From the IMG/VR virus record IMGVR_UViG_3300025597_000012: 64,000 bases of DNA; one strand, given 5' to 3'. The notes beneath the pieces are model-generated. The model did no database searches. It had not been told where the DNA came from and saw only the letters and a program-made list of their open reading frames with translations. Made by a program: the position numbers and the translations under genes. The stretch comes from a virus. Positions 49,973 to 64,000 of this stretch are shown in pieces. Position 1 is the first letter of the stretch. Every line of letters starts with the position of its first letter.

Positions 49973-50056
49973 CGGTAGAGACAGGAATCGAACCTGTACG
50001 GCTATTACACCTTCATGGTTTTCAAGACCAATAAGCCCTCTCATTTGCGCTCTACC
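49973..50056 (-). tRNA. tRNA-Ser (TGA), type II
   Basis: Anticodon loop CTTGAAA; 84 nt; acceptor GGTAGAG/CTCTACC. Confidence 0.7.
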
Positions 50057-50062
50057 AATATG

Positions 50063-50148
50063 TACTCCTGACTGGACTCGAACCAGCACGTCCATTTCTG
50101 GACAAGGGATTTTAAGTCCCTCGTGTCTACCAATTCCACCACAGGAGC
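50063..50148 (-). tRNA. tRNA-Leu (TAA), type II
   Basis: D-arm GTG-GAATTGGTAGA-CAC; anticodon arm AGGGA-CTTAAAA-TCCCT. Confidence 0.8.
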
Positions 50149-50153
50149 ATATG

Positions 50154-50237
50154 TAGCCTCGGAGAGACTCGAACTCTCACGTCCTTACGGACACTAGCTC
50201 CTAAGGCTAGCGCGTCTACCAATTCCGCCACAAGGCC
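50154..50237 (-). tRNA. tRNA-Leu (TAG), type II
   Basis: D-arm GCG-GAATTGGTAGA-CGC; anticodon arm CTAGC-CTTAGGA-GCTAG. Confidence 0.8.
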
Positions 50238-50238
50238 A

Positions 50239-50269
50239 ATAAAAAACCCCGACTATTGCTCGCCGGGGT
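50239..50269 (-). terminator. Intrinsic terminator (7-bp GC stem then U6AUU) 2 nt upstream of tRNA-Leu(TAG); attenuator terminator of array B
   Basis: Hairpin plus T-run on the minus strand. Confidence 0.7.
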
Positions 50270-50300
50270 TTGAGGTTAAAGACCGTAGTCTAAAACAAGT

Positions 50301-50369
50301 TTACATAGTATTCCCAGCTCGATTTTTACTCGATAAACTGAGGGAATAATATGTGTTGTTTGTCTTCAT
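50301..50369 (-). CDS. Leader peptide MKTNNTYYSLSLSSKNRAGNTM (22 aa) of tRNA array B
   Basis: ATG 11 nt from the predicted TSS. Eight consecutive codons TAT TAT TCC CTC AGT TTA TCG AGT cover all five downstream tRNAs: Tyr-GTA, Ser-TGA, Leu-TAG, Ser-GCT, Leu-TAA. Confidence 0.6.
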   Translation of the reverse strand: MKTNNTYYSLSLSSKNRAGNTM

Positions 50370-50386
50370 TGCGTTTGAAAGGAATA

Positions 50387-50418
50387 CAAATATACGAAAA
50401 ATATTTGAAACTACCAAA
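50387..50418 (-). promoter_or_regulatory. Promoter TTTG-N20-TATATTTG for the array B leader
   Basis: Extended consensus copy. Confidence 0.55.
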
Positions 50419-50424
50419 TTTTTA

Positions 50425-52368
50425 TTAATAAATATTTATTGCTAGTTTTTCTTTAAATAACTGCTTTTGGTAAAAGCGTTGTTTTAAAAATGAATATCTA
50501 TCGTAAGATTTGTTAATATCATATAATAAATTAGCTAATAAAGAGTTACCAACAGAAGCTATAAAAGTATTTATTTTTTGAAATAACGCTCTGAAATACA
50601 AGATATTAGTTTCTCTTGTAGGAAGGTGAATCTTTACTGATTTAGGTACTCTTACTGGCGGTGCTTCATTTACTGTTACCTGAACAGTATCTGTTCCTAC
50701 TGCACCATTGTTATCAGTAACTGTTAATGTAAATGTATATATTCCGGCTGCTAAACCGCTAACTATAGTAGTTGGTGAAGTAGGTGTTTCTATTAAATGT
50801 GCTGTAGGCCCACTTGTTTTTGTCCAATTATAAGAAGAAATAGTGCCATCTGTATCAGTCCCGCTACCATTTAAAGTTGCACTATTAGCAGGAAGAGTTA
50901 TAATTTTATCTTCTCCTGCATTTGCAACTGGGGCTATATTTTGTGCAGCAATTACAGTAATTATTACATTAGAACTGCCTGTTGCACCGTTATTATCAGT
51001 AACTGTAAGTCTAAAAGTATATATACCTGTAGATAAAGCACTTACAACCGTTGATGCGGAATTAGGTGATTGTATAGTAGCATTTGTAGGGCCACTAACT
51101 TGAGTCCAAGCATATGAAGAAATAGTCCCATCACTATCCGAACCGGTTCCGTTTAAAGTCACAGAACTTGCTGGTGCTTGTATAGATTGATTATTTCCTG
51201 CATTTGCAGTGGGTGGGGTATTTCCAACACAATTTGTTGTATATACTATTCCCGGTGTAACATCTATATCCGATGGAGAATTATCTGCTAATTTTGTATT
51301 TCCACAAATTATATTATCTGTGTTATATCTATTTGGATAATTTCCTCCATTATCATCAACACTAATATCAAAAGTTTGAAGAGAACCGCGAGAACCTGTT
51401 CTATTATTCTTGATAATAAATGTAGTATTCTCTACAGGAATTGTATTTCTTGGAGAAACAATAATAGCCCAAGGCCATACAAGACTATGGTCTAAACCAT
51501 CTCTTGTAGCTGAAGCAGGAAGAAATCCACTATGATTAATAGTATTATTTTCAATTCTTACATAAGTTCCTCCAAGTGAAGCAATACCCCAAACATAAGT
51601 ATAATCAATATTATTATCATGAATATACACTTTTGAATAAAGTCCTATATTAATACCGTTACCTTGACCATCACTAATTTCAAGACCTGCATTAGTAATT
51701 GTATTATTATAAATTTCACTTATACCAAGTTCAGCATCAGAAAGTTGAATAGCGGCACGACCTGTTTTATCAAATATGTTATGGTGAATTTTAAAATTAC
51801 CAAGGCGTGTCGGTTTATATTGTCCTTGAGTTGCAGGCACTCCATTACAAACAATAGGATTTCTATCTAACCAAAGAGCATTAGGGTCTGTAGAACCACA
51901 GTACATACCTTCGTATGTAATATTTCTTACTCTACAGTGATGAACTTCAATATTATTTATATACCAGTTAGGATATTGTAATGATGGGTCACAACTAGCT
52001 TCATTTTTAATCCAAAAACCAAAGGCTCCACCATCTATATCTATGTTAGAAACTTCTATATCAGAAACTCTTCCATGTAAAGAACATCCTGTTGAAACAA
52101 AACCATAGGTATCTGCTGAACCAGTTCCTAAAATTTTAATATGTGTACAATGTTCAATATCAAATGATACTTGAACTTGTCCGCCTTCATTTATAATGGT
52201 GATAGGCTGGTCAGCAGTACCATGTACTTCTGCCATATAAAAATAACTTCTAGGATTATCTGAAGCTCTAAGTACAATAGTATCTCCCGGATTAAAAATA
52301 CCCGGACTATTGATACCATTAAACATGTAACCGTTGTCTCCCTGTTTACCGGGATAATGTATTGCCAT
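50425..52368 (-). CDS. Tailspike/depolymerase candidate: right-handed beta-helix (NNTI/HDNNI repeats) with two C-terminal PKD/Ig-like repeats
   Basis: …IYNNTITNAGLEISDGQGNGINIG…IHDNNIDYT…IENNTINHSG… and duplicated …NAG(N/E)…TLNG(T/S)G(S/T)D(S/T)DGTISSY.WT.(V/T)SGP… segments. Confidence 0.7.
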   Translation of the reverse strand: MAIHYPGKQGDNGYMFNGINSPGIFNPGDTIVLRASDNPRSYFYMAEVHGTADQPITIINEGGQVQVSFDIEHCTHIKILGTGSADTYGFVSTGCSLHGRVSDIEVSNIDIDGGAFGFWIKNEASCDPSLQYPNWYINNIEVHHCRVRNITYEGMYCGSTDPNALWLDRNPIVCNGVPATQGQYKPTRLGNFKIHHNIFDKTGRAAIQLSDAELGISEIYNNTITNAGLEISDGQGNGINIGLYSKVYIHDNNIDYTYVWGIASLGGTYVRIENNTINHSGFLPASATRDGLDHSLVWPWAIIVSPRNTIPVENTTFIIKNNRTGSRGSLQTFDISVDDNGGNYPNRYNTDNIICGNTKLADNSPSDIDVTPGIVYTTNCVGNTPPTANAGNNQSIQAPASSVTLNGTGSDSDGTISSYAWTQVSGPTNATIQSPNSASTVVSALSTGIYTFRLTVTDNNGATGSSNVIITVIAAQNIAPVANAGEDKIITLPANSATLNGSGTDTDGTISSYNWTKTSGPTAHLIETPTSPTTIVSGLAAGIYTFTLTVTDNNGAVGTDTVQVTVNEAPPVRVPKSVKIHLPTRETNILYFRALFQKINTFIASVGNSLLANLLYDINKSYDRYSFLKQRFYQKQLFKEKLAINIY

Positions 52369-52378
52369 TTATTTTAAT

Positions 52379-52780
52379 TTAGGATATTACTTTAGTTGTT
52401 GAATCACTATAGGTTATAGTGACTATTTTTGTATCAAAATCTACTACTACATCATCTATTACTCTAGTAACAGTTACTTTTACACTATCTGAACTAGTTG
52501 CTCCTTTGTTATCAGTAGCAGTTAATTTAAACGTATAACTACCTAAAAGAAGTCCTGTAATTGTAGGAGTAAGGGTATTTTGTCCTGTAATTGTACAAGT
52601 ACCTCCGCTAGTTTTAGTCCAAACTACTGAAGAAATAGTACCATCAGGGTCTGTGGCAGTTCCAGTTAGAACTATTTGATTATTAGGAAGTTGTACTATT
52701 TTATCAACTCCTGCATTTACTATAGGTACTTTATTTATTGCCATATTTACAAATATACAAAAAAAAAACCATATTGCCAA
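52379..52780 (-). CDS. Ig-like/PKD-domain protein
   Basis: VNAGVDKIVQLPNN…GTATDPDGTISSVVWTKTSG… is paralogous to the tailspike C-terminal repeats. Confidence 0.5.
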   Translation of the reverse strand: MAIWFFFCIFVNMAINKVPIVNAGVDKIVQLPNNQIVLTGTATDPDGTISSVVWTKTSGGTCTITGQNTLTPTITGLLLGSYTFKLTATDNKGATSSDSVKVTVTRVIDDVVVDFDTKIVTITYSDSTTKVIS

Positions 52781-52784
52781 ATTT

Positions 52785-53243
52785 CTAGTTTCGGCAAATA
52801 TGGTCTGCTGCTTTTGAAGCTATCATCTCGTCTGGTTTTACTAAAACATTATATCCTAGTGATTTAACCCAACCGGTAATAGCTGGAACAAGATTTGTTG
52901 ATTTTGTTATTTTTGCATTATTATAATCGAACTCAAGGGCTTCAAATTGGACTGGAACTTCTGCATTTATAGTTTGAGCTGTATCTATTGTTATTTCAGC
53001 TTCCTTCCATAAACGGCTAAAAGTATCCCTTATCCTAGGGATTCTTTGCTTTCTATATACAAAGTGTGCTCCCCTAAGTCCATATCTGAACACAACCGCC
53101 GTAGCGTAAACTGTATTCGACCCGTAATTCTGTGAGTCAGTAGCTATGTAAATCTTTAGGTTTGGATTCTGCTGTATTTGTTCTACAACGTGTTCCACTA
53201 TGTTTACTAACTTTCCTTCCTCTGTCCGAAAGTATTTGTCCAT
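52785..53243 (-). CDS. Hypothetical protein (weak RNase H-like KIYIATDSQ…ATAVVF pattern)
   Basis: ORF; the motif match is only weakly suggestive. Confidence 0.45.
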   Translation of the reverse strand: MDKYFRTEEGKLVNIVEHVVEQIQQNPNLKIYIATDSQNYGSNTVYATAVVFRYGLRGAHFVYRKQRIPRIRDTFSRLWKEAEITIDTAQTINAEVPVQFEALEFDYNNAKITKSTNLVPAITGWVKSLGYNVLVKPDEMIASKAADHICRN

Positions 53244-53255
53244 TGGTTTTATTTG

Positions 53256-53331
53256 TGGAATCTATGGGCATCGAACCCATCTGGTATTCTGCTTGCAAGG
53301 CAGACGACCACTCCAAGCAGTCCCAGACCCC
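53256..53331 (-). tRNA. tRNA-Ala (TGC)
   Basis: Anticodon arm TCTGC-CTTGCAA-GCAGA; acceptor GGGGTCT/AGATTCC with G3:U70; unusual G8. Confidence 0.65.
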
Positions 53332-53335
53332 AAAT

Positions 53336-53456
53336 GCGGGGGACTACGGCCCCCTAAAGATGTCTTATTAGGTTTCATCTCTGTCCCGGATTACGCTAGC
53401 GAGCTACCGGGGAAACCACGCTACATACTTTCGTAGAGGTTATGCGGGTTACACTG
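53336..53456 (-). ncRNA. Unresolved ~120-nt structured spacer between tRNA-Ala and tRNA-Ile; hairpin-rich but no canonical cloverleaf found
   Basis: GGGGG-CCGTAGT-CCCCC and TAGCG…CGCTA stems. Confidence 0.2.
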
Positions 53457-53529
53457 TGCTCACGCTAAGACTCGAACTTAGACTCTCTCGCGTATCAGGC
53501 GAGAGCTTTAACCATTAAGCTACATGAGC
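53457..53529 (-). tRNA. tRNA-Ile (GAT)
   Basis: Anticodon arm CTCGC-CTGATAC-GCGAG; T-arm CTAAG-TTCGAGT-CTTAG. Confidence 0.8.
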
Positions 53530-53581
53530 TGGAGAGGGACAGGTTATTTATACCTTCAAAGGACTCCCTCAGACCTCTTCG

Positions 53582-53654
53582 TACTCTCAAAGGGATTCGA
53601 ACCCTAAATTGCCTGTGTATAAGACAGGAGTTTTCACCGTTAAACTATGAGAGC
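53582..53654 (-). tRNA. tRNA-Ile (TAT) (AUA-decoding, or a modified-Met type)
   Basis: Anticodon arm CCTGT-CTTATAC-ACAGG; acceptor GCTCTCA/TGAGAGT. Confidence 0.55.
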
Positions 53655-53659
53655 AAGTA

Positions 53660-53740
53660 AAGAGAGTGGGATTAGATTTCCGGGGATTGACCCAACCTGT
53701 GTCCTAATCTTATTTATCCTTGTACGGAGGCACACTCTCT
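53660..53740 (-). ncRNA. tRNA-like element (~80 nt) with 7-bp terminal pairing AGAGAGT/ACTCTCT but no canonical T-loop
   Basis: Pairing of the two ends is seen; no cloverleaf could be built. Confidence 0.25.
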
Positions 53741-53801
53741 TTGAATGGTCGGGCGGATTGCTTCTTTCAGCCTCAGACATTAATTACAATGTTGCCCGAT
53801 G

Positions 53802-53874
53802 CGGTCTATCACGGATTCGAACCGAGACTACCGCATAGACAGTGCGGCGTGTTCAACCATTACACTAATAGACC
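53802..53874 (-). tRNA. tRNA-Asp (GTC)
   Basis: Anticodon arm CCGCA-CTGTCTA-TGCGG; acceptor GGTCTAT/ATAGACC; overlaps the 3' end of the upstream ORF by ~15 nt. Confidence 0.8.
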
Positions 53875-54504
53875 ATAAACTTTATCCATGTTTGTTTTTC
53901 CGTTGCCATGAATAATCAACGGCTGAGTACCAGTTTTTTTATTAATCAGGATTCCATGTCTGTACTCAAAGTCATCTTCTGATTCAAAAGCTACAGATTG
54001 AAATAAATCACAGTTGGTATCCAACTTCATGTTATATTTATCTCTGTGCTTCAGATAAATTTCTGCTAAGTTAACTTGGTCATTATCACTATGTTTTATT
54101 GGATAATCCTCAAACATCTTGATAAATAAATCTACATTAACAAAGCATGCACCACCATTCAGATATTTCCAATCACTTTTTACTTTAGGATATTTTTCTG
54201 CCCAATCTGAATAAGGCCAGCATCCTTTTTCTGCGTTAAATATAATAGAATCAATATCATCTATTCTATCTATTGCTTGTTGCATTGTACCCAAAACTAT
54301 GATGTCATAAGTGTCTAGGATAAACAAGTGAGTACAATCTGTTTGCTTTGCATAGTTATAAGCGTTAACCATTTTACTACCATAAGCTTTATAGGTATCA
54401 GTCAGAATATCATAATTCCAATCAAACCTATCAAGTGAATCTTTAAACTGTTTAAACCCTTCGTGGTTTAAGTTGGTTGCTGTTCCTATTACGTTTACTT
54501 TCAT
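53860..54504 (-). CDS. Hypothetical protein, possible glycosyltransferase-like
   Basis: ORF; weak resemblance only. Confidence 0.35.
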   Translation of the reverse strand: MKVNVIGTATNLNHEGFKQFKDSLDRFDWNYDILTDTYKAYGSKMVNAYNYAKQTDCTHLFILDTYDIIVLGTMQQAIDRIDDIDSIIFNAEKGCWPYSDWAEKYPKVKSDWKYLNGGACFVNVDLFIKMFEDYPIKHSDNDQVNLAEIYLKHRDKYNMKLDTNCDLFQSVAFESEDDFEYRHGILINKKTGTQPLIIHGNGKTNMDKVYGLLV

Positions 54505-55289
54505 TTGAATGGATTATAATAAATAGATATTGTATTATTCTTATAACCCTGAACGGTTTCGTGATAGGTTTTCCATTGTTCAGAAGCATGGTTTTCTTTC
54601 CATTTCTGGTATGGTGTTCCTCCTGTATCTATGTGTTCTATCTCTATATGAGGTAAGAATACACTTTTAAACCCTGATAGTCTTGCTCTTATAGACATAA
54701 GGACATCATCAAATCCGTATAAACTAGGTTGGTATAAATAACCTATTTTATCAAGTAAAGCTGCTGAGTGCATAACACAAGTACCCATCACATGATTTAC
54801 TTGTTCTACTACTACCCATTTTTCACCGGGCTGGTGTTGAAGCATTAGTAATTCTGACTTATAAAAATCAGTTCTATTTGGTGATTCCCAACAATCTTTT
54901 CTTTTCAAGCCCACCTGTCCAATAGTATTGTCACGGCGAAAAACTTCTTCCATCTGTTCTATCCAACCTGATTGATGTATTACTACATCATCATCAATTT
55001 TAACACAATTCTCTCCGGGTTTTCTTTCTTTCCATGCTAAATTAATAGCTTCAGCAGTTCCTAGATTTTTATCATTCCAGATAACTTTATCAATTACAGA
55101 AAAAATTCCATTTGATTCAGAAAAATCTTCTATTATTTCTTTTGTTCTAGTAGTATAGGAATTTACAGAAAGTATTAATCTGTGTGAATCCCAGTCAACT
55201 GTTTTTTCTAAAGAATCTAATGTTTTATAAAGATATGTATCTTTATCATTATCTTCAGTACAATAAACAGCCATTGCTATTAAAGCCAT
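54501..55289 (-). CDS. Glycosyltransferase family 2-like; start moved to the internal Met at 55289 because the track start (55331) lies inside tRNA-Glu
   Basis: …NDKNLGTAEAINLAWKE…CVKIDDDVVI… (DxD) and YGFDDVLMSIRARLSGFK. Confidence 0.55.
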   Translation of the reverse strand: MALIAMAVYCTEDNDKDTYLYKTLDSLEKTVDWDSHRLILSVNSYTTRTKEIIEDFSESNGIFSVIDKVIWNDKNLGTAEAINLAWKERKPGENCVKIDDDVVIHQSGWIEQMEEVFRRDNTIGQVGLKRKDCWESPNRTDFYKSELLMLQHQPGEKWVVVEQVNHVMGTCVMHSAALLDKIGYLYQPSLYGFDDVLMSIRARLSGFKSVFLPHIEIEHIDTGGTPYQKWKENHASEQWKTYHETVQGYKNNTISIYYNPFK

Positions 55290-55304
55290 TGGTTTTATTT
55301 TTAG

Positions 55305-55379
55305 TATTCTGGAAGGGACTCGAACCCTCACTGACCACAGTGAAAGTGTGGTGACTTATTCCAATTTGTCAACCAGAAC
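55305..55379 (-). tRNA. tRNA-Glu (TTC)
   Basis: Anticodon arm CCACA-CTTTCAC-TGTGG; acceptor GTTCTGG/CCAGAAT. Confidence 0.75.
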
Positions 55380-55459
55380 ATTTGCAGTTTAGTCGGCCTC
55401 TACTATACCTAGGCCGCAGAGAGTATAGACTCGTATTCCATCTACTGCAAAAAGGAATT

Positions 55460-55530
55460 GAGCGAGTAGTGGGAGTCAAACCCACGCCTTAACCTTGGAA
55501 GGGTCATATGCTATCGTAACACTTCACTCG
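55460..55530 (-). tRNA. tRNA-Gly (TCC)
   Basis: Anticodon arm TGACC-CTTCCAA-GGTTA; T-arm GTGGG-TTTGACT-CCCAC; the 5' end overlaps the HNH stop. Confidence 0.6.
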
Positions 55531-55942
55531 CTAATGCTTCTTTATAATGTAAATCTCTATGACAATTAGCACATAAAACTTTACATTTATTTATTTCTTC
55601 TTGTAATAGTTTTTTAGAACATTTTGTTACAAGTTGTGATACTTCTGAATCTTTTTCATTTGGATTTTTATGATGAAAATCTAAAACCCAATATCTACTA
55701 TCTCCACATGATTCACAAGATAAAGTACTTTTGTATTCAGAAAACCATTTTCTAAAGTCTTGTTTATACTTTACTGCTTTTTGAATATACTTTTCTTTAT
55801 TTTTTTCGTAATGCTTTTTTCTATATTCTTTTTGACAAGCTTTACAATTACTTTGATAAAGTAAATTTTTTCTATCTTTTCTTGTAGCAAACTCCGTTAA
55901 AGGAAGTTCTTTTTTACAAATTGTACATTTTTTAATTTTCAT
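55511..55942 (-). CDS. HNH homing endonuclease (leaderless; start at MKIKKCTICKK)
   Basis: CESCGDS…DFHHKNP…LCANCHRDLH; the predicted promoter places the TSS on the ATG, so the N-terminal extension in the ORF track is rejected. Confidence 0.7.
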   Translation of the reverse strand: MKIKKCTICKKELPLTEFATRKDRKNLLYQSNCKACQKEYRKKHYEKNKEKYIQKAVKYKQDFRKWFSEYKSTLSCESCGDSRYWVLDFHHKNPNEKDSEVSQLVTKCSKKLLQEEINKCKVLCANCHRDLHYKEALASEVLR

Positions 55943-55947
55943 ATATG

Positions 55948-55979
55948 TAAATATACGAAAAATAATTGATACTTCCAAA
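55948..55979 (-). promoter_or_regulatory. Promoter TTTG-N20-TATATTTA for the HNH endonuclease
   Basis: Extended consensus copy. Confidence 0.5.
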
Positions 55980-56001
55980 TTTTATTTTATTTGGAAGGAT
56001 G

Positions 56002-56073
56002 TTGCGTAGGCTGGATTCGAACCAGCGACCTAATGGTTATGAGCCATCCGAGCTACCTCTGCTCTACCACGCA
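56002..56073 (-). tRNA. tRNA-Met (CAT), elongator-like
   Basis: Anticodon arm GATGG-CTCATAA-CCATT; T-arm GCTGG-TTCGAAT-CCAGC. Confidence 0.8.
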
Positions 56074-56183
56074 ATTTATCCCCGGACTAGTGCGCCTTCC
56101 TCCGGGGGTGTTATTGCTTATCTTCTTCGTCAATAACTAAACCCTTTTGGGTCGGCCAACGGATACTATCCGCAGGGGGGGGG

Positions 56184-56396
56184 CTATCTTAATATCTTTA
56201 AACCGCTGGTAGCAGTCCAAAGAACATAATTGTTTTTCTTTACTTCACCCATTACTATTTTCTTTTCATAATTAGTAACTCGTGAAGTAGGAAGGGTAAC
56301 CAACCAGTGAATGAATTTTTCTCGTTCACCTTTGTATTTTTTAATACTGGCTATCCTACGGTATTCCTTACCGTCTTTTATGACTGTATCATTCAT
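56184..56396 (-). CDS. Small basic hypothetical protein
   Basis: ORF; its TAG stop directly abuts a G9 homopolymer. Confidence 0.35.
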   Translation of the reverse strand: MNDTVIKDGKEYRRIASIKKYKGEREKFIHWLVTLPTSRVTNYEKKIVMGEVKKNNYVLWTATSGLKILR

Positions 56397-56397
56397 G

Positions 56398-56472
56398 CGG
56401 GACAGGATGGACTCGAACCAACGACCTTAGAGTTAACAGCTCTCTGCTCTCGACCAACTGAGCTACAGTCCC
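56398..56472 (-). tRNA. tRNA-Asn (GTT)
   Basis: Anticodon loop CTGTTAA; D-arm GCTC..GAGC. Confidence 0.7.
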
Positions 56473-56513
56473 CTTTTGTATTTTTAACTCCACGCAGAAT
56501 ACTAACTGACCTG

Positions 56514-56587
56514 AAGCCCTGAAAGGAGTCGAACCTTCATCTAATAGTTTAGAAAACTATGACATTCATCCATTATGCTACAGGGCC
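56514..56587 (-). tRNA. tRNA-Arg (TCT)
   Basis: Anticodon arm ATAGT-TTTCTAA-ACTAT; acceptor GGCCCTG/CAGGGCT. Confidence 0.8.
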
Positions 56588-56590
56588 ATG

Positions 56591-56665
56591 TACATCTGGA
56601 ATGAGTCGAACATTCGGTCTCCGTCTTGTAAGGGCGGTGCTTTCAACCAACTAAGCTACAGATGC
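56591..56665 (-). tRNA. tRNA-Val (TAC)
   Basis: Anticodon loop CTTACAA; acceptor GCATCTG/CAGATGT. Confidence 0.75.
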
Positions 56666-56720
56666 AAATATAATACTTTATTTAAAGCTTACCAAATAAA
56701 GTATGTTAAAGTTTTGTTAG

Positions 56721-56791
56721 AGGACAAGATAGGAATCGAACCTACGCTGGAGGTGTTGCAGACCTCTGCCTTACCGCTTGGCTACTTGTCC
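56721..56791 (-). tRNA. tRNA-Cys (GCA)
   Basis: Anticodon arm GAGGT-CTGCAAC-ACCTC; acceptor GGACAAG/CTTGTCC. Confidence 0.8.
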
Positions 56792-56794
56792 ATG

Positions 56795-56868
56795 TGCTAC
56801 CGAAGGGACTCGAACCCATAACCTCCTGATTAAAAGTCAGAAGCTCTACACTATTGAGCTACGATAGC
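56795..56868 (-). tRNA. tRNA-Lys (TTT)
   Basis: Anticodon loop CTTTTAA; acceptor GCTATCG/CGGTAGC. Confidence 0.75.
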
Positions 56869-56871
56869 AAA

Positions 56872-56898
56872 TAAAAAACCCTCCTTTAAGGGGAGGGC
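56872..56898 (-). terminator. Intrinsic terminator (CCCUCC…GGAGGG then U6AUUU) 4 nt upstream of tRNA-Lys; attenuator terminator of array D
   Basis: Hairpin plus T-run. Confidence 0.7.
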
Positions 56899-56920
56899 TT
56901 CAGTAATATTCGTGGTTAAA

Positions 56921-57013
56921 TTAAACCAGTTCTATATCAGACATAGCTCTCCTGATGATGGTATCTCTACCCACCTCTTTACAAATCATATTTATGGCTA
57001 TGTTCTTTCTCAT
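56921..57013 (-). CDS. Leader peptide MRKNIAINMICKEVGRDTIIRRAMSDIELV (30 aa) of tRNA array D
   Basis: ATG 11 nt from the predicted TSS. Codons AGA AAG AAC…AAT…TGT AAA…GTG…AGA…AGG AGA…GTT are read by the downstream Arg-TCT, Lys-TTT, Asn-GTT, Cys-GCA and Val-TAC tRNAs (13 of 29 codons). Three ATA codons also match tRNA-Ile(TAT). Confidence 0.55.
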   Translation of the reverse strand: MRKNIAINMICKEVGRDTIIRRAMSDIELV

Positions 57014-57030
57014 TTTAAATTTAAGTTATG

Positions 57031-57062
57031 CAAACTTACGACAAATATTTGGATTTTCCAAA
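57031..57062 (-). promoter_or_regulatory. Promoter TTTG-N20-TAAGTTTG for the array D leader
   Basis: Extended consensus copy. Confidence 0.55.
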
Positions 57063-57080
57063 TTTATTAATAGAAAATAA

Positions 57081-57281
57081 TTAAATCTTTTGTGAATATC
57101 TTTTCCAGCCTGTAACTTTATTGATAGCGTCTACTAGTTTATTGTAATCTTTACGCCAGTTTTTATAAGCTTTGGAGCGTTTATCTGATGGCTCCTTAGC
57201 GGCCTGTTCAGCTAAAAGTTCATCAGCATGACCTACGTTTACAATAATTATTTCTTTATCGTCAATCATTACTCTTTCCAT
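57081..57281 (-). CDS. Small hypothetical protein
   Basis: ORF coupled to its upstream gene. Confidence 0.4.
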   Translation of the reverse strand: MERVMIDDKEIIIVNVGHADELLAEQAAKEPSDKRSKAYKNWRKDYNKLVDAINKVTGWKRYSQKI

Positions 57282-57607
57282 TACTTTATTCTTTTAATAA
57301 GTTCACCACTAAGCTCCTCATAAATTCTTGAGAATTTTTCATAACCCATTCTTATTAAGAACATTCCGTAGTTTAAAAATATCTTTACGTGCTCATCATC
57401 TTCTTTACCATAAGCTACAATATCATTTAAATTGACTACTAATGGTTTATATGTAGTTTCTGAATCATCTTCATCTTCTTCATCTTCTTCATATTTATCA
57501 CCTTTAATCAGACGTTTAGCTATTCTTGCAGCTTTGTCTTCTTCTGATTCATTGTTCTTGTCTTTAAAGACTCTTACTTTTACAAAAAATTCTACGCGTT
57601 GTGCCAT
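57281..57607 (-). CDS. Acidic hypothetical protein
   Basis: ORF; EEDEEDEDD tract. Confidence 0.45.
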   Translation of the reverse strand: MAQRVEFFVKVRVFKDKNNESEEDKAARIAKRLIKGDKYEEDEEDEDDSETTYKPLVVNLNDIVAYGKEDDEHVKIFLNYGMFLIRMGYEKFSRIYEELSGELIKRIK

Positions 57608-57620
57608 GTTTTTTATTTTG

Positions 57621-57736
57621 CAGTATGGGAAGGATTCGAACCTTCATAGTTTAATGTATCGTTCACTAGGAATACTTAATACTTATAAACTGCCACCGAG
57701 ACTAGGTGGTGCGTCTGCCAGTTCCGCCACCGTACT
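57621..57736 (-). tRNA. Atypical 116-nt tRNA-like gene: Leu-like D-arm (TG-GCG-GAACTGGCAGA-CGC), canonical T-arm (GAAGG-TTCGAAT-CCTTC), paired acceptor, ~46-nt hairpin insertion in the variable region, non-canonical anticodon loop UAGUCUC
   Basis: Own promoter whose predicted TSS coincides with the 5' end. Confidence 0.4.
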
Positions 57737-57743
57737 ATAAGTA

Positions 57744-57774
57744 CAAAGATAGTGAAAAATTTTGAGATTACAAA
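57744..57774 (-). promoter_or_regulatory. Promoter TTTG-N19-TATCTTTG driving the atypical tRNA-like gene
   Basis: Predicted TSS falls at the tRNA-like 5' end (57736-57737). Confidence 0.5.
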
Positions 57775-57776
57775 AT

Positions 57777-58544
57777 TTATAATCGACTTCCTAGAAAAAT
57801 TAATCCTCCAAATTCCAGAGCTTTTAACAAAATATTAGGTTTTTTAACAGGAGAATAGATTACTGAATTCTGTCCCATTACGTTAATAAATTGTGAACTA
57901 TGCAATACCTGAACCTGAAATTTAGGTTTAGAGAAAGGATGGAAAAATCCTCTTTTAAGTTTTACTACTCTAATATATTGAGTATCAGCTATTGAGATAG
58001 TTCCAAGATGAAATCCTGTCTTTGTGATTACTCCTGAAAGTCTTATACCTTCCTGATATTTATCTTCAACGCTATCTAAAGTTACAGCTTTAGGAACCTT
58101 AATCATATTGTTCAGGACGTAGTTATATAAAGAGGCTGTGTCTTTATATTTACTTAATTCCTTTCTAACACTGTCTATGGTAGCTGTGTCCTTATAAGGA
58201 ATGAAGGTATTATCTATATGAGCTGAGAGTTGTGCTTCGTAGTAGAATGTGACATCCTTAATTTTCTTCTCATACTTTTTAGTCAGATTAAACTTCTGGT
58301 CAGTAAGGTCTTTAATCTCAGCTTGATTATCTGTGATAATAGAAGTCTGAGTATAAACGGTTTGTTTTAACTCATTTTTAATACTGTCTAATTTTTGGTT
58401 AGCTAAGGTCAAAGAATCCAATGCCACGTTCTGACGAGCTACTTGGGATTCGTAATTACACTTGTTAAGAAAAAGACAAAGAAATAATCCAGCTATTACT
58501 GAGAAATAAATGTAGTCTTTGAAATTAATTTTAGGGAATGTCAT
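57777..58544 (-). CDS. Membrane-anchored coiled-coil protein
   Basis: N-terminal TM helix (SVIAGLFLCLFL); ORF. Confidence 0.5.
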   Translation of the reverse strand: MTFPKINFKDYIYFSVIAGLFLCLFLNKCNYESQVARQNVALDSLTLANQKLDSIKNELKQTVYTQTSIITDNQAEIKDLTDQKFNLTKKYEKKIKDVTFYYEAQLSAHIDNTFIPYKDTATIDSVRKELSKYKDTASLYNYVLNNMIKVPKAVTLDSVEDKYQEGIRLSGVITKTGFHLGTISIADTQYIRVVKLKRGFFHPFSKPKFQVQVLHSSQFINVMGQNSVIYSPVKKPNILLKALEFGGLIFLGSRL

Positions 58545-58604
58545 GTTTTTGATTTGTTCAAATATAAGGCATTTGGATACCCAAATCCAAATCTTTTAAG
58601 TTAA

Positions 58605-59090
58605 TTAAATGTTAAGGAGTCTACAGATATAGCGGAAGGCAGATTTATCTTTACATTCTCCTTCAAAAAGTATTTTGTCACTATTATGTATTTTAAAAAT
58701 ACTTAGATATGTAGTGTCATCTTCATCTTCTTTTTGTCCATTGAAAAAATGAATAATTCTATTTTCTTTCTCCCAAAGGTATTCTCTCCAATGAATACAT
58801 CTCCATCCCTCAGCTATTATATCTTCCTTGGTAAGATAGGGTACTCTAATAAGTCCTCTTTCCAAATTGGAGGCTAAAGTTGGGCTTCCGTCTGATAAGA
58901 ATGTTTCTTTAACCCAGTTGTCCTCAAGTACCCAGTCTGCTACAGGTTGGGGATAATCCATTTTAATTAGCTGTTCCTTAGGTATATATCTAAGGAAATT
59001 TTGTTCATACTCGTACCCGTAAATAAAGTCTTCCAGTTTAGGAGTGAAATACTTACTGTCCATTGTCTTTGGTTTTATGTGAGCCGTCAC
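58605..59090 (-). CDS. Hypothetical protein
   Basis: ORF only. Confidence 0.45.
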   Translation of the reverse strand: MTAHIKPKTMDSKYFTPKLEDFIYGYEYEQNFLRYIPKEQLIKMDYPQPVADWVLEDNWVKETFLSDGSPTLASNLERGLIRVPYLTKEDIIAEGWRCIHWREYLWEKENRIIHFFNGQKEDEDDTTYLSIFKIHNSDKILFEGECKDKSAFRYICRLLNI

Positions 59091-59271
59091 AGAAGATACC
59101 GTCTTTACTTTTCCCGCAGCGGCACAGGGCTATTGTTCCGTTTTTTGAAGTATTGAAGATTCCTTGGATACCTTGATTAGGTTGTTTATCCTTAGGGTGA
59201 AGTTCAATTTCGTAGTCGGTGCATGCTATAAGAGCAGGGCCACCTTCGAGCAGTTTAATCTTTAATGCCAT
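59053..59271 (-). CDS. CDGSH iron-sulfur domain (mitoNEET-like) protein
   Basis: CRCGKSKDGIFCDGSH matches C-X-C-X2-S-X5-C-D-G-S-H. Confidence 0.65.
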   Translation of the reverse strand: MALKIKLLEGGPALIACTDYEIELHPKDKQPNQGIQGIFNTSKNGTIALCRCGKSKDGIFCDGSHKTKDNGQ

Positions 59272-59295
59272 AATATATTGGTTTTTTTAGGGGTT

Positions 59296-59544
59296 TTACT
59301 GTTTTGATGTCTTCATTGATTGATTATAAGAAGGGCCAAAAAAGGAGAAGCTTGGCTTAATGTAGGAGGAGCCTTTAACGGCGTTGCCTTCCTTCTCGAT
59401 AAACTCAACAGCTTGTCTGGCCTCTTCGTTATCCCTAGAGTCAACTACAGGGATATTAAAAGTCTCACCTTTGGTATTGGTTACCTTCAGTTGGTAGGAG
59501 CGTTCTCCGGGCGTTGTAATCTTTTCGATTTTCGTCTTATTCAT
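59296..59544 (-). CDS. Hypothetical protein
   Basis: ORF only. Confidence 0.4.
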   Translation of the reverse strand: MNKTKIEKITTPGERSYQLKVTNTKGETFNIPVVDSRDNEEARQAVEFIEKEGNAVKGSSYIKPSFSFFGPSYNQSMKTSKQ

Positions 59545-59884
59545 TTTCAGGCGTTTTAACGGGGTTAATTGAATCTGGTGTCTCGGTCTGGGGTTCTTGG
59601 GTAGTGTCGGTTAAATCGACCGTAATAGCTTCAGGGATGGTCATAGAGGCTAACTGTTCAGGAGTAATCCTAGATAAAGGGAAAACTCCATTAGGAGTAT
59701 GAACGAATATATGGTTCTCTAGGATGGCATCCTCTATATGTAATCTGCGGCATACCTGTACATAATCTATAAAGGCTTTATAGTCGGAAGTGTACTGGAT
59801 TGTATAGGTCTTGTCAATTACACCACCTGCCTGCCCAACACTATAAGCAAATCCGGGTATTAGTTTGTCTGTAATCATAACCAC
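59537..59884 (-). CDS. Hypothetical protein (first gene of the leftward transcription unit)
   Basis: ORF; candidate promoter …TAAATTTG… about 20-35 nt upstream at 59905-59945. Confidence 0.45.
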   Translation of the reverse strand: MVMITDKLIPGFAYSVGQAGGVIDKTYTIQYTSDYKAFIDYVQVCRRLHIEDAILENHIFVHTPNGVFPLSRITPEQLASMTIPEAITVDLTDTTQEPQTETPDSINPVKTPENE

Positions 59885-60433
59885 AAAGGTAGTGTTTTTC
59901 TCTCACTTAACCAAATTTAATTTGTTAAAATAGGCCCCCGGTATTTAACATTTGAAAAAGATACCCCCGTACTTACCTAAAGGGGAAATAAGGGGAGGCT
60001 CTCACTCTTAGGAACCCGGTTATAACTCCTCCCCCGCGTTCCCTTAGTCCGTGACCTATCCCCCTGCTTAAAGCCGTAACGAATTGAGAACCAGCGACTT
60101 ACAACTATTTTCAAAGTTTTTGCCCTGAATAGTTGGAAACGGTCAGCAGGATGACCTACTTTTGTCTGGTAATCCTACCACACAGCCCAAAGGGGCAAAG
60201 CAAAGTAAGGCAAGCCGCAAGGCCATCCCTGAACTGTTCGTGGCGTGATTACCCTGCATATAAACTATAGGCAAACTTTGCCTACAGTCCAAAGTATGGA
60301 ATGTCGGAATAACTGATGTTTATTGGTGTCTATGTAGCATCCAACTCAGGTGTTAGTCTACATAGGATTAAACAGTAGGCCAGTTGACCAGTCGGGGTAT
60401 TTTTATACCTAACTGCAAACCATTGGTTAATCC

Positions 60434-60457
60434 AAAAAACCCGTCCTTTACGCGGGC
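60434..60457 (-). terminator. Possible minus-strand terminator inside the GC-rich region
   Basis: CCCGC-GUAAAGGA-CGGG then U6. Confidence 0.3.
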
Positions 60458-61397
60458 TTGCTAAAAACAGGCTCTTAAATTGGACTCCCTAAGGGGATAT
60501 GCTTATACGATTGTGTCTGCTCATGCAGGTACATCGGTCAAGGGCAAAGTGTTACCGTCATCAGAATACAGGAACAAACCTGTATACGGTAGGGGTATAT
60601 CCCAACGCAGCCGGCTTGGTACGGACTTGGCAAGTCCAAACCATGACAATACTCGGTCAAACAACCCTGCTGTCCTAAATGGGCATCATATAGGCAGGGA
60701 CTGCGAAGCAACGTAGTGGACAACTCCCTGCTTAGGGTAGGGGTATATAGTGTCCGGTGCGTAGTGTAAAGGTGGCTATTGTTACCTGAAAGCGTAACGA
60801 AAGGAATAAACTGCAAAGTTTTTGAGGCTCGTCATGTACTAACGGGCTATTTTGCGTGTAGAATAATATTCAACCACGTTTCTGAATAGTACAAAGTAAG
60901 GTAAGCTACCTGCGAAAACGGTCTAAACGGGCTAATTGCACCCGCAAGGATTAGACTAAACTCACAATTATTTCTATAATTGAGTATAAAGCGGAAGCAC
61001 TCTTGTCATTTAGTGACAGGACTAATCTGCAAGTAAGGTATGAGGGTGGCCGCAAGGTTGCACCCTCATGTCGGGGTCAAATCCGGCGGAAGGCTCATAA
61101 CTTTCCGCCTTACCACATTTGGACACGGACGGATAACACAATAGGGGATGGGGCACGTCAAAGCACTACTAATGTAGGCGAGCACGGCACTCATTCCCTT
61201 GTTGTGTTAAAGTTGTGTTACATTTTACGTTATGTAAAGCCAGCAGTGTGCCGCGAGGTTCTTTTGCTGGCTCAATGTACTGAAAGAGAACCGTTTGCGG
61301 GTTGTTCCGTATGGGTCGGTATGTCCATATCTTTTGCTCGTAAATTGTTGATTTTCAATGTTTCAAAGGCTCTCATTAGTTATTACTGGGTCTTTAT

Positions 61398-61436
61398 GGG
61401 GGGTGTGTCGGTACTGTCCTGCACACCCCTTTTCTA
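61398..61436 (+). terminator. Plus-strand intrinsic terminator (GGGGUGUG…CACACCCC then UUUUC)
   Basis: 8-bp GC-rich stem plus T-run ending the ORF-poor region. Confidence 0.55.
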
Positions 61437-61474
61437 TTAGGATTATCGTGCCTCTTATGGCATAATGATACAAT

Positions 61475-61669
61475 ATGGCTGAACTTACTCTTGCACAGTT
61501 GGTTGAAAGGTGTTATGCCTCTAATACCGAACTGAAACCTCACGTTAAAAGTACGTGGCGTAGTCCTGAACCGTGTGAATTCGGGTGGCATATTGAAGAG
61601 GCTACCTGTAATGACGGCAGCGTATGGGAGTGGATACCGGAAGACCATATCTGGGAACTTAAAAGATAA
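61475..61669 (+). CDS. Small hypothetical protein (GC-rich rightward operon)
   Basis: First of five tightly spaced plus-strand ORFs with ~48% GC codon usage. Confidence 0.4.
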   Translation: MAELTLAQLVERCYASNTELKPHVKSTWRSPEPCEFGWHIEEATCNDGSVWEWIPEDHIWELKR

Positions 61670-61671
61670 GT

Positions 61672-61920
61672 ATGCCTTTACCTAATGACCTTCACCCTAT
61701 CCTTAGGACTTGTTGGCTTGAGGATATTGTGCCTGTTTGTAAAAAAGTGTGGCAAAGTGAAGGTACACAAAGATGGCACAATAAGACAGATGCCAAAGAT
61801 GTAATATCTAAGGCATTACAAGCCATGTATCCATATAAAATTAGCAATCTGGAGATAAACTTTGTTTACTTTCAGGCTATGCAGTATGTGGATGACCTTG
61901 AGAAATCATTAAATTCCTAA
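61672..61920 (+). CDS. Small hypothetical protein
   Basis: Operon member. Confidence 0.4.
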   Translation: MPLPNDLHPILRTCWLEDIVPVCKKVWQSEGTQRWHNKTDAKDVISKALQAMYPYKISNLEINFVYFQAMQYVDDLEKSLNS

Positions 61921-61987
61921 TATGCACAAAGCAATTCGGATTTTTATCCATGCCATGTTTGGCATTTTCTTCTAAACCAATACATCT

Positions 61988-62257
61988 ATGCGTATCCAAT
62001 TTGGATGCACTCAAACTGTCTTGGATAATACAGGACGGCTTGTGTGCTATCGTGGCTCTTTACCTGTTCATAAGGGTTTGGCACATAGTAATCCTGCTAT
62101 TAAATTGATTAAGGGCAAGGCATTCTATATGCCTGAGAGTCAGGACTTTGAAGAGTTATGGAGATTATTGGATGATATGAGGATAGTTAACCACAAGTTT
62201 AAGATAAAAGAACTGAACCAGCGCATTAAACAAATTAAAAAGAAATCAACGTGGTAA
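61988..62257 (+). CDS. Small hypothetical protein with basic C-terminus
   Basis: Operon member. Confidence 0.4.
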   Translation: MRIQFGCTQTVLDNTGRLVCYRGSLPVHKGLAHSNPAIKLIKGKAFYMPESQDFEELWRLLDDMRIVNHKFKIKELNQRIKQIKKKSTW

Positions 62258-62340
62258 ACACAATCATTCACATCTGTGAGGCGGGGACTATTCATGTCCT
62301 TACCGCTTCGGGGCTTGCTCGTAAATAATAGGCTCAATAT

Positions 62341-62730
62341 ATGCACGTTAGAATCCATTGGAAAGTGGATAGTTCGGGCGTGGCTAAAAAGGATGAAAAA
62401 TCTTTATCCTTCAAGCACAGGCTCGGAACTAAACCGCTATCCTTGAATCAAAGCGTGGAGTTTACGTTAGACGGCAAGATTAACAAGACGTGGAAACGTA
62501 ACTTCACTAAGAAAATCAACGCACAGTTCCGGCGCAATTCTACTGCTGTCTTATTCATTGACGGTAAACGGATTGAGCACGGGACAGGACTGCGTGATGC
62601 AGGTTCTTTTGCCAACGAGATTGCCAACATTTTGTTGGAACTCCGGCATACCCACAAAGAAACTTTTGATGCAGTTTCCAACCGTAAAGGTAAGGAGATT
62701 GCAGGGAGTATAGCTAACGCACTGGCTTAG
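62341..62730 (+). CDS. Hypothetical basic protein, 129 aa
   Basis: Operon member. Confidence 0.45.
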   Translation: MHVRIHWKVDSSGVAKKDEKSLSFKHRLGTKPLSLNQSVEFTLDGKINKTWKRNFTKKINAQFRRNSTAVLFIDGKRIEHGTGLRDAGSFANEIANILLELRHTHKETFDAVSNRKGKEIAGSIANALA

Positions 62731-62763
62731 TAGTGCTATTTTAAACGCATAAAACAAAAACAA

Positions 62764-63351
62764 ATGCGTACAACTAACAAAGTAAGCGTGAGATTCTCAC
62801 AGGACTTGTCTTATGTCGGGCCTTCCCGCAAAGGCAAGGACGGCGTAGTCAAACCGGGCAGGCTCATTACTTTCGGTAATGAGATGGTATTCTCGGATGA
62901 GACTGAAGAGGAAGTAACAGCCGAAAACGTAGGTTCGTGGGCTGTGGCTAAAGTCGGCCACGCCTTGAAACTGATGCGTTTGCAGGGCAAAACCGGTTTC
63001 AAAATCAGCAAGCCTATCGTGATGGAAGTAACCATCAACGGTAAGCGTGTTGAATTGAGTTACTGGAAAATGTCACTGAACCTTGACCGTATTGAGCGTA
63101 TCATGGGTAAATCACCCGAATTGCTCGCGTATGCCTTTACCGGCTACAAACACAACGTGTCAAAGTCAACTGCAAAAGACGGTTTCGCGTTCCTCGCCAA
63201 TGCTGCAAGTGGTAAAACACTGCTGGCTCCCGCTGTTACCAACAACCCGCTGCTGCCCGCTGTCAACACAGAAGGACTGGAAGAACTGGAAGTTGAGGAA
63301 ACTCAACCCGTAGTTACTGACAACCTGCCTGTGGATGAAGAAGCAAAGTAA
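62764..63351 (+). CDS. Hypothetical protein, 195 aa, acidic C-terminal tail
   Basis: Operon member; followed by a terminator-like hairpin. Confidence 0.5.
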   Translation: MRTTNKVSVRFSQDLSYVGPSRKGKDGVVKPGRLITFGNEMVFSDETEEEVTAENVGSWAVAKVGHALKLMRLQGKTGFKISKPIVMEVTINGKRVELSYWKMSLNLDRIERIMGKSPELLAYAFTGYKHNVSKSTAKDGFAFLANAASGKTLLAPAVTNNPLLPAVNTEGLEELEVEETQPVVTDNLPVDEEAK

Positions 63352-63613
63352 GCGGTACCGGCCGGAACGAATACCGTGCCTATTGTAAGGTAGGTTAGCC
63401 CTTAGTAGGTGCTAAGTATATCGTTCCCGCTGCCTGTATGTTTATCCGGAAACTAAAACACCGGAAACGATCAAAAATCCTTGTACCTCCCGTAATTATG
63501 CGGCAGGTAGGGTGTGCTGTAGCTGCCAACTGTAATCAGTAAGACGGCAAGCATTATGTATAATCAGCAGGAGGGTGGTAGCAAAAATGGGTAGCCAACC
63601 CATGATACCTAAA

Positions 63614-63651
63614 CAGTCGTTAAGTGTGCCTGTCCCGACTGCTGATTTTTT
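63614..63651 (+). terminator. Weak terminator candidate (CAGUCG…CGACUG then U6)
   Basis: Stem with a long loop plus T-run. Confidence 0.3.
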
Positions 63652-64000
63652 AACAAAAGATTATTCTTATTTAGTCTTATATCTTAGGCAACGACTATAA
63701 CAAGTAATAAGGAATCAGTCACCTCAGATAATATCTCCTATGATATAGACTAATGAGTATATAAAGAATACCTCGCGTCTGTAATCTATCCACTAACTGT
63801 CGTAAAGTGGGCACCTGTATGTTAGCCTGACGAATGGCATACAGAAAGCTACCTATGTGTGCTCGTTGGCACATCAATGTTAAGGGGACAGGGTTATGGA
63901 CGCGAGGTATTTTTTTTGCTATGGGTGTTACTCGTAGTGGTTCAACTCCACTAAGCAAAGCATGAAGCACATCCTCGCCTTTCACTACAAGGCAAATGAA

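Follow-up and report, generated by a model that had tools for sequence, protein, structure and literature searches.

The window considered here is a 64,000-nucleotide stretch of the virus record IMGVR_UViG_3300025597_000012 of IMG/VR, and its subject is the junction near the right-hand end, where genes on the minus strand give way to genes on the plus strand across a gap of about 1.6 kb free of open reading frames (ORFs). With somewhat better than even confidence, this junction is interpreted as the head of an early transcription unit that opens with a long structured non-coding RNA, in the manner of phage phi14:2. The non-coding gap is the most informative part of the region and went unmentioned in a preliminary description of the same DNA, which had drawn attention to a change of strand and of guanine-cytosine (GC) content. 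The GC anomaly is real and ordinary in origin, being an architectural feature conserved in a clade of crAss-related phages.

Phage phi14:2 has two long intergenic regions close to where its early module begins, and both yield abundant, early, rightward transcripts whose role was reported as unexplained; the early genes are read by a virion RNA polymerase and have no common motif, and the middle and late genes have host-type promoters (Drobysheva et al., bioRxiv 10.1101/2020.03.07.982082). By analogy, the rightward unit of the window would be the early unit. On the leftward side, the transfer RNA (tRNA) arrays and the structural genes would each be read from a host-type promoter (TTTG...TAnnTTTG), and the rightward unit, devoid of such promoters, would be read by a phage polymerase. 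This unit would begin with a non-coding transcript of about 1.4 kb instead of a gene, running rightward from near a conserved motif (60.0 kb) to a hairpin followed by a U tract (61.43 kb), and RNA, not DNA, would be its functional product. Five small, fast-evolving early genes would come after the transcript, followed by a second structured non-coding stretch.

The ORF-free gap and its landmarks

The non-coding features on which this interpretation is built are the following:

59885..61474, plus strand: ORF-free gap at the strand switch, 1,590 bp, 44.8% GC, candidate long non-coding RNA locus
60012..60063, plus strand: conserved bipartite motif, single-copy, AACCCGGTTATAACTCCTCCCCC, ~20 nt, TATCCCCC
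60476..61440, plus strand: strongly structured part of the gap, sliding-window z down to -7.5 to -8.1
61037..61072, plus strand: hairpin with a GCAA loop, from alignment to strain variant L003 and folding
61133..61209, plus strand: extended hairpin of 77 nt, from alignment to L003 and folding
61398..61438, plus strand: intrinsic-terminator-like hairpin (GGGGGGUGUG...CACACCCC, then UUUUCU), 36-39 nt before the first plus-strand ORF
63352..64000, continuing to ~64212 beyond the window, plus strand: second ORF-free stretch, 861 bp, strongly structured (positions 10590-11449 of contig L001)
63563..63652, plus strand: long hairpin closed by AUCAGCAG/CUGCUGAU, then U6, predicted operon terminator (sequence and fold)
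63763..63920, plus strand: domain of ~110 nt with a closing stem of 22-25 bp, then U8 (inverted repeat I2, fold, sliding-window z -5.9)

No credible ORF is present in 59885-61474, either with the standard code or with TGA, TAG or TAA reassigned, and the only long ORF of the gap (61003-61440, TTG start) is broken in L003 (JGI 3300009710). Searches for known RNA families returned only tRNAs in the window at the Rfam gathering score and nothing relevant in 58500-64000 even at E<=1; the gaps of five relatives also had no match to known families in Rfam, and the covariance models of GOLLD, ROOL, OLE, HEARO, group I and II introns, tmRNA and RNase P gave no match.

The predicted folding of both non-coding stretches is more stable than that of shuffled sequences. 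For 60476-61474, the minimum free energy was -356.8 kcal/mol on the plus strand against a shuffle mean of -297.1 (z -4.4), and -281.0 kcal/mol on the minus strand against -250.7 (z -5.1), corresponding to an excess stability of -60 versus -30 kcal/mol. The second stretch gave -264.8 kcal/mol against -221.8 on the plus strand (z -6.9) and -242.5 against -209.1 on the minus strand (z -4.2), with an excess of -43 versus -33 kcal/mol. Of 6 long gaps, 5 had a mean sliding-window z that was lower for the plus than for the minus strand, and the right-hand portion was the most structured.

A GC-rich hairpin followed by a U tract occurs at 61398-61438, 63563-63652 and 63763-63920, and all three are predicted intrinsic terminators; the second bears out the suggestion of the preliminary description that the plus-strand operon ends at a terminator of its own. 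The hairpin at 61398-61438 (dG -19.3) ranks first among the plus-strand hits in the 20.6-kb locus of L001, a contig nearly identical to the window. In 7 of 9 phages a hairpin with its U tract ends 15-39 nt before the first putative early ORF, a placement very unlikely to arise by chance because the background of terminator-like sites is ~0.9 hits per kb.

The strain variant L003 carries ~35 substitutions and indels at 61051-61195, confined to the tips of two hairpins, and is otherwise 99.9% identical to the window. In the first hairpin (61037-61072) the tip is replaced, with a UGUA loop and one extra pair, and the stem is kept, both variants being able to fold (-19.0 and -22.0 kcal/mol). The distal two-thirds of the second (61133-61209) have been rewritten by substitutions and indels, and it is still an unbranched hairpin (-39.4 kcal/mol, z -8.1, and -29.9 kcal/mol, z -4.0 for the two variants) with a U-A to C-G exchange in its stem. 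Escape from spacer targeting is one idea for such clustering of changes.

Near the left edge of the gap lies the bipartite motif, which in its shared form consists of CAGTTATAACTnCTCCCCC, ~22 nt and TATCCCCC. Allowing up to 3 mismatches still yields a single match in the window (0.01 expected), and the motif is also carried by the cultured phage Lbo-JY46 (hereafter JY46), by the related phage contigs L015, L016, L019, L022 and L026, and by a bacterial island, L023. No hairpin formed by the motif and its upstream sequence is conserved among the relatives. Two further matches from a metagenome motif scan were rejected, one (L012) being a chance match within a bacterial gene and the other (L011, ~50% GC, without tRNAs) looking unrelated. 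The viral contig L022 (IMGVR_UViG_3300043403_000051, 83 kb; positions 1-70) ends 60 nt past the motif, possibly because the genome physically ends there or because the assembly broke in a variable region.

Additional sequence elements were observed in the gaps. That of the window contains two pairs of direct repeats, CCTGnnTAnGGTAGGGGTATAT at 60578-60599 and 60726-60747 (148 nt apart) and CAAAGTAAGGYAAGC at 60200-60214 and 60891-60905 (691 nt apart), and GGTAGGG and AAGTAAGG recur in the gap of JY46. The L016 gap harbours two elements that are not in the window: a tRNA-like acceptor/T-arm minihelix, GCAGGGCAGAGGGTTCGATTCCCTTTGCTCTGC (3160-3420 of the locus reverse strand, dG -22.9), and two copies of the palindrome GTTCCACGTGGAAC.

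A conserved divergent junction with one-sided promoters

Matches in PHROG to portal, large terminase and major head proteins identify the window as phage DNA with the hallmarks of a Crassvirales-related genome. In tblastn searches with the terminase, the nearest cultured phage was Leptolyngbya phage Lbo-JY46 (PP438436.1; 49% identity), Cellulophaga phi17:2-type and crAss-like phages being found at 23-34% identity, and the Pfam families Crass_capsid and CrAss_Ring_2 were detected in the relatives L026 and L024. The window phage is interpreted as a crAss-related phage infecting Bacteroidota.

Related loci were fetched through an RNase H-like protein encoded 6.6 kb to the left of the gap, for which more than 120 homologues were found (47-79% identity). 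Nine of the 10 loci are on terminase/portal-bearing phage contigs and 8 include sequence upstream of the RNase H gene. Seven of these eight run as far as a strand switch that has a large ORF-free gap, and L020, with 10 kb of upstream sequence, does not reach one. Searching the phage collection with the DNA of the region gave no match, and a search for related loci in IMG/VR with three window proteins found none. The ORF-free gaps at the strand switch have the following lengths:

L015: 503 bp
L016: 1,746 bp
L017: 1,455 bp
L018: 2,008 bp
L019: 1,253 bp
L025: 1,148 bp
L026: 1,214 bp
Lbo-JY46: ~990 bp

The strand switch is, in this manner, a conserved divergent junction of the phage clade. Its GC content is at or above that of the backbone in every relative, most strongly in L017 (~0.42 versus 0.33-0.37) and JY46 (0.39-0.47 versus 0.22-0.38 in the adjacent DNA).

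The two sides of the junction also differ in their promoters. A scan with the consensus of the Bacteroidota primary sigma factor, TTTG-N17-21-TAnnTTTG (-33 TTTG and -7 TAnnTTTG), gave 13 matches against 3.2 expected, a number reached in none of 100 shuffles. Eleven of the 13 fall on the minus strand at 48-60 kb, each immediately preceding a gene or tRNA array of that strand, and the consensus is almost absent from the putative early genes on the plus strand of L001. The same strand-specific pattern is present in every relative, JY46 included. The match closest to the gap is:

59884..59915, minus strand: Bacteroidota-type host promoter (TTTG, N20, TACCTTTG) from the pattern scan, adjoining the start of the 113-aa gene

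Taken with the conservation of the divergent junction, these one-sided host promoters support in outline one of the explanations put forward in the preliminary description, that of an early-gene module under different selection.

The host-type promoters at 48254-59915 (minus strand) share an extended form, TTTGGnA...TTCAAA...CGTAnnTTTG, which suggests a single co-regulated class comparable to the middle promoters of phi14:2. JY46, deposited with a cyanobacterial host, has Bacteroidota-type promoters upstream of its late-strand genes, and because of these the phage may in truth infect a Bacteroidota bacterium present in a non-axenic culture. The notion that a motif kept across host phyla would require a phage-encoded reader was dropped for the same reason.

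Composition and genes of the island

Over most of 2-58 kb, tRNA zones excepted, GC content per kb is 0.28-0.39, and from 59 kb to the window end it is 0.41-0.45; the tRNA zones of the phage are at 0.42-0.44. A finer-scale profile places the beginning of the increase at ~58.8 kb, within minus-strand genes and not at the strand switch, and in L001 the GC content is back to 0.30-0.33 from position 11500, equivalent to ~64.2 kb of the window. Because GC rises at ~58.8 kb and drops again at ~64.2 kb, the anomaly is a bounded island of 5.4 kb straddling the strand switch:

58760..64000, running ~200 bp past the window end to ~64.2 kb, no strand: GC-elevated island, ~44-45% GC versus ~33% in the backbone

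The discontinuity that the preliminary description had placed at 59.9 kb is therefore a real change, with a GC onset ~1 kb further left and no abrupt step at that point. The rightward block, described as an attached end with ~48% GC, measured 44-45% (44.1% for its ORFs and 44.8% for the gap) and is not terminal, as AT-rich sequence resumes beyond it in L001. To the left of 59.9 kb, the DNA was said to be entirely minus-strand, AT-rich and supplied with tRNAs, which holds apart from the tRNA zones with their higher GC, the GC-raised 58.8-59.9 kb and the ORF at 1024-2037 (TTG start), the sole long plus-strand ORF on that side. The five plus-strand ORFs were found exactly at 61475-63351 as described, and the GC-rich codons attributed to them are all enriched relative to the late genes (CTG 0.27 versus 0.02, GGC 0.34 versus 0.06, CGC 0.11 versus 0.03).

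The mean GC content of the five ORFs is 0.441 (range 0.37-0.49). GC content at third codon positions (GC3) is 0.46 in these ORFs versus 0.17 in 41 kb of late genes; it is 0.37 in the four minus-strand genes at 58.6-59.9 kb (single values 0.30-0.48) and falls to 0.28 in plus-strand genes further right. The GC excess would have two sources, namely structured non-coding DNA at the GC level of the tRNA zones, and nine small genes that lack the extreme preference of the late genes for A or T at third codon positions.

The island genes are as follows:

58605..59090, minus strand: 161-aa gene inside which the GC rise starts, GC3 0.30; from the ORF list, no Pfam, PHROG or PADLOC match
59053..59271, minus strand: 72-aa CDGSH iron-binding zinc-finger protein (Pfam PF09360, E=9.9e-10, above the curated cut-off)
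59296..59544, minus strand: 82-aa gene; from the ORF list, called in independent contigs, no family match
59537..59877, minus strand: 113-aa gene, first of the leftward unit; called as 113 aa in L001 and L002
61475..61669, plus strand: 64-aa ORF, first of the putative early ORFs; called in 5 contigs, no family match
61672..61920, plus strand: 82-aa ORF; ORF list and contig calls, no family match
61988..62257, plus strand: 89-aa ORF; ORF list and contig calls, no family match
62341..62730, plus strand: 129-aa protein, clade-conserved; tblastn homologue in L016
62764..63351, plus strand: 195-aa protein with an acidic C-terminal tail; homologue in L018, small fast-evolving family

Except for the Pfam assignment of the 72-aa CDGSH protein, none of the nine island proteins had a match in Pfam, PHROG or PADLOC. 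The preliminary description had recommended a BLAST search of the five plus-strand proteins; with tblastn, two of them were found to have homologues in relatives, and the 64-, 82- and 89-aa proteins had no family match. The 129-aa protein shares 37% identity (E=5e-17) with the product of a 131-aa gene that occupies the corresponding place after the gap in L016, and the 195-aa protein shares 46% identity (E=3e-20) with its L018 homologue, also at the equivalent position. On the other side of the gap, homologues of the 161-aa protein occur in L014, L017, L018 and L020 at 25-31% identity. Word-indexed protein searches returned only self-matches for the product of the 113-aa gene (115 aa from its listed GTG) and for the 195-aa protein, and an exhaustive HMMER search recovered 31 remote homologue clusters of the latter. 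Because of these clusters and of the diverged homologues at matching positions, the island genes are regarded as fast-evolving and not foreign. The 129- and 195-aa proteins were also considered as possible paralogues, with no detectable relationship.

The AlphaFold2 model of the 195-aa protein reached a predicted local distance difference test (pLDDT) score of 84 when built with an alignment, the single-sequence model being poor (pLDDT 51). It had no significant structural match in the PDB or BFVD and no sequence match in the PDB. A confident model lacking neighbours in these databases, for a protein without Pfam, PHROG or PADLOC match, may correspond to a new fold.

Some observations concern the surroundings of these genes. 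The listed ORF of the 113-aa gene extends to a GTG at 59884. A CDGSH iron-sulfur zinc-finger domain beside the junction is unusual for a phage early or middle gene. The 22 tRNAs of the phage are all on the minus strand at 48.4-56.9 kb (21 by ARAGORN and one by Rfam only), the latter being a tRNA-Trp (anticodon CCA) at window positions 55461-55531 that was matched by the Rfam tRNA model and missed by ARAGORN; they include neither a Gly tRNA nor a suppressor tRNA. Among the remaining ORFs, one encodes 3,959 aa. At the opposite end, window positions 1-2037 have a GC content of 38-39% and a strongly negative GC skew (-0.26 to -0.34).

Alternative explanations and known systems

An assembly chimera joining the phage to unrelated DNA at ~59.9 kb, as contemplated in the preliminary description, would have nothing in its favour but the shift of composition and strand. 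At least 8 contigs from samples in ENA, JGI and Logan encode an identical 195-aa protein, and the whole junction is spanned by L001 (118 kb, ENA ERZ724020) and L002 (16 kb, JGI 3300010348), which come from different samples and assemblers and are 99.96-99.97% identical to the window (99.97% for L001); parts of the region recur on shorter contigs of further samples. In L001 the small plus-strand genes continue beyond the window, and AT-rich phage sequence returns after 64.2 kb. The layout is moreover kept in relatives, one of them a cultured phage, and a junction shared with related phages had been named beforehand, together with uniform coverage, as what would dispose of a chimera and leave the mosaic explanation standing. 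Because independent assemblies carry the same junction, this explanation is to all practical purposes ruled out. A recently acquired island, also proposed in the preliminary description, would agree with the atypical composition (44-45% versus 33% GC; GC3 0.37-0.46 versus 0.17), as expected of genomic islands. However, no integrase or transposase domains were found in the island proteins by Pfam and PHROG searches, and the flanks have no direct repeats beyond chance-level 15-27-mers. The content of the locus is not unique either, since homologues of the 161-, 129- and 195-aa proteins, the gap, the motif and the terminator are at the same positions in relatives. With this layout kept in relatives and diverged homologues placed correspondingly, the recent entry of foreign DNA is not supported. 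A mosaic replacement, in which homologous recombination would have swapped in the early head of a GC-richer member of the clade and the head would not yet have drifted to 33% GC, is more plausible than a chimera and still improbable. It would account for a GC content of ~44% that is common to coding and non-coding parts and to both strands, and for self-matches being the only result of the word-indexed searches with the 195- and 115-aa proteins. A donor of this sort could resemble L016, which has 44% GC overall and 46% in the gap, and which contains the closest homologue of the 129-aa protein, detectable even in DNA (E=2.4e-6). Yet identities to L016 and L018 are just 37-46%, the GC boundaries are gradual and not sharp, and protein identity to the relatives declines smoothly toward the junction, from 75% to ~30%, as for fast-evolving early genes. 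The junction is also GC-elevated in other AT-rich relatives (L017 and JY46), which suggests constraint rather than a single event.

The alternative that bears most directly on the proposed RNA is that the gap acts as DNA, namely as a hub of cis sites that would serve packaging or mark a terminus, start replication, or form hairpin promoters for a polymerase preferring single-stranded DNA. The hairpins would then be DNA structures, and the one preceding the first ORF a promoter element instead of a terminator. This is considered possible, if rather unlikely as a full account. In its favour, the single-copy motif includes a 10-bp palindrome (AGTTATAACT), has A/T tracts ahead of it in JY46, L016 and L022, and lies close to the end of the L022 contig; its occurrence in the 6.9-kb Chitinophagaceae integrative island L023 recalls satellites carrying the packaging site of their helper. 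In addition, cumulative GC skew has its minimum at 58-59 kb, the folding z-scores of both strands are similar, and the virion polymerase of phi14:2 was assayed on denatured DNA (bioRxiv 10.1101/2020.03.07.982082). On the other hand, a motif of 50 nt leaves 1-2 kb of conserved ORF-free length unaccounted for, and the region is GC-rich, unlike typical origins. The U tracts of the hairpins before the first ORF are confined to the plus strand (7 of 9 phages), and the excess stability of the plus strand is twice that of the minus strand, which fits the contribution of G-U pairs in RNA. The two explanations are partly compatible, and the motif may well be a DNA site.

Several points weigh against the proposal of an early unit headed by a structured RNA. 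No similarity is detectable between gap sequences outside the motif, and for this reason the evidence of covariation is confined to one strain variant; the changes in L003 are the sole compensatory evidence and fit RNA and DNA hairpins equally. The folding z (-4.4 versus -5.1) fails to separate the strands, so that the hairpins may be formed by DNA, and the enrichment of GNRA hairpins on the plus strand is just modest. The DFDxD polymerase motif was not found in the large proteins inside the window, and a virion polymerase is for that reason assumed. The strong GC contrast is limited to the window phage, L017 and JY46. Finally, a test of whether the raised GC3 of the small genes depends on host tRNAs was negative: the possibility that it reflects codons unserved by the phage tRNAs was rejected, the readable fraction being 0.73 versus 0.72 under a lenient wobble rule.

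A more specific proposal, put forward tentatively and with clearly less confidence than the early unit itself, is that the gap represents an undescribed class of structured RNA of ~0.8-1.4 kb, which would be the first early product, would have the motif at its 5' side and would have had this motif captured by the Chitinophagaceae island. GC-rich intergenic regions (GC-IGRs) reportedly served as markers of structured-RNA genes in AT-rich genomes in the work of Klein, Misulovin and Eddy in 2002, and the GC-IGR searches of the Breaker laboratory are said to follow the same heuristic. The gap resembles such cases as a 45% GC intergenic region that is predicted to fold with excess stability and lies in a genome of 33% GC; it differs in that GC-IGR designates a search heuristic and not an RNA family, and no known large RNA family was matched here.

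Phage N4 offers a second comparison. Its virion RNA polymerase uses DNA-hairpin promoters with stems of 5-7 bp and loops of 3 nt, present in three occurrences, and its early genes are at one genome end. The organisation proposed here would have in common with N4 early genes at one genome end, an injected polymerase (assumed in this case) and hairpins close upstream. In contrast with N4, the stems of the window type have 8-12 bp, are associated with U tracts and occur once before the first ORF, and an N4-like polymerase was not identified in the window.

As for the bacterial island, P4/P2 and cos-type phage-inducible chromosomal islands (PICIs) are satellites that carry the packaging site of the helper. 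L023 (JADLHL010000069.1, a Chitinophagaceae metagenome-assembled genome, ~704-7600) is a 6.9-kb integrative island inserted in tRNA-Asn, whose 3' end is directly repeated (30 nt) at the two island borders, with genes for a tyrosine integrase, an HTH_17 excisionase-like protein and an XRE regulator. It carries the junction motif of the phages as TCAGTTATAACTACTCCCCCC, N21, TATCCCCCC at 7344-7392, and has no significant protein similarity to the phages, with one weak tblastn match of 35 aa (E=0.008). Judging from this shared sequence, L023 may be a satellite-like element having a cis site in common with the phage clade. Like those satellites, it is a small integrative island bearing the single-copy motif of a phage clade; unlike them, it is a single example, shares no capsid-related or other genes with the phages, and has 6.9 kb to set against a helper genome of ~120 kb. 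If true, L023 would give the first indication that crAss-related phages are exploited by a satellite.

The crAss-like phages are among the most abundant viruses of the gut and of engineered anaerobic systems, and the start of their infection is poorly understood. Explaining the composition anomaly without misassembly or gene transfer is useful for curating metagenomic phage genomes. Phage phi14:2 is a close system for comparison and the sole experimental hint of long early non-coding RNAs. Several differences separate the two: there is no sequence similarity (blastn found nothing better than chance) and the phi14:2 intergenic region has no GC excess (0.29 versus 0.28), both of which also count against the proposed reading, and the stretch in phi14:2 follows four small genes instead of a strand switch, the motif and the pre-ORF hairpin were not found there, and RNA was measured in phi14:2, the window locus being known from sequence alone. 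Even so, both phages have long ORF-free DNA at the head of the rightward early module, a putative one in the window phage (~1.7 kb at g004-g006 in phi14:2, 1,590 + 861 bp here), and the lack of a host-type promoter motif in phi14:2 early genes matches the strand asymmetry of the window phage. The resemblance, as far as sequence can tell, is one of organisation and not of homology. A comparable locus is now defined across a related clade with the motif, the gap and the pre-ORF hairpin as fixed landmarks, providing a moderately interesting and testable extension of the unexplained phi14:2 observation.

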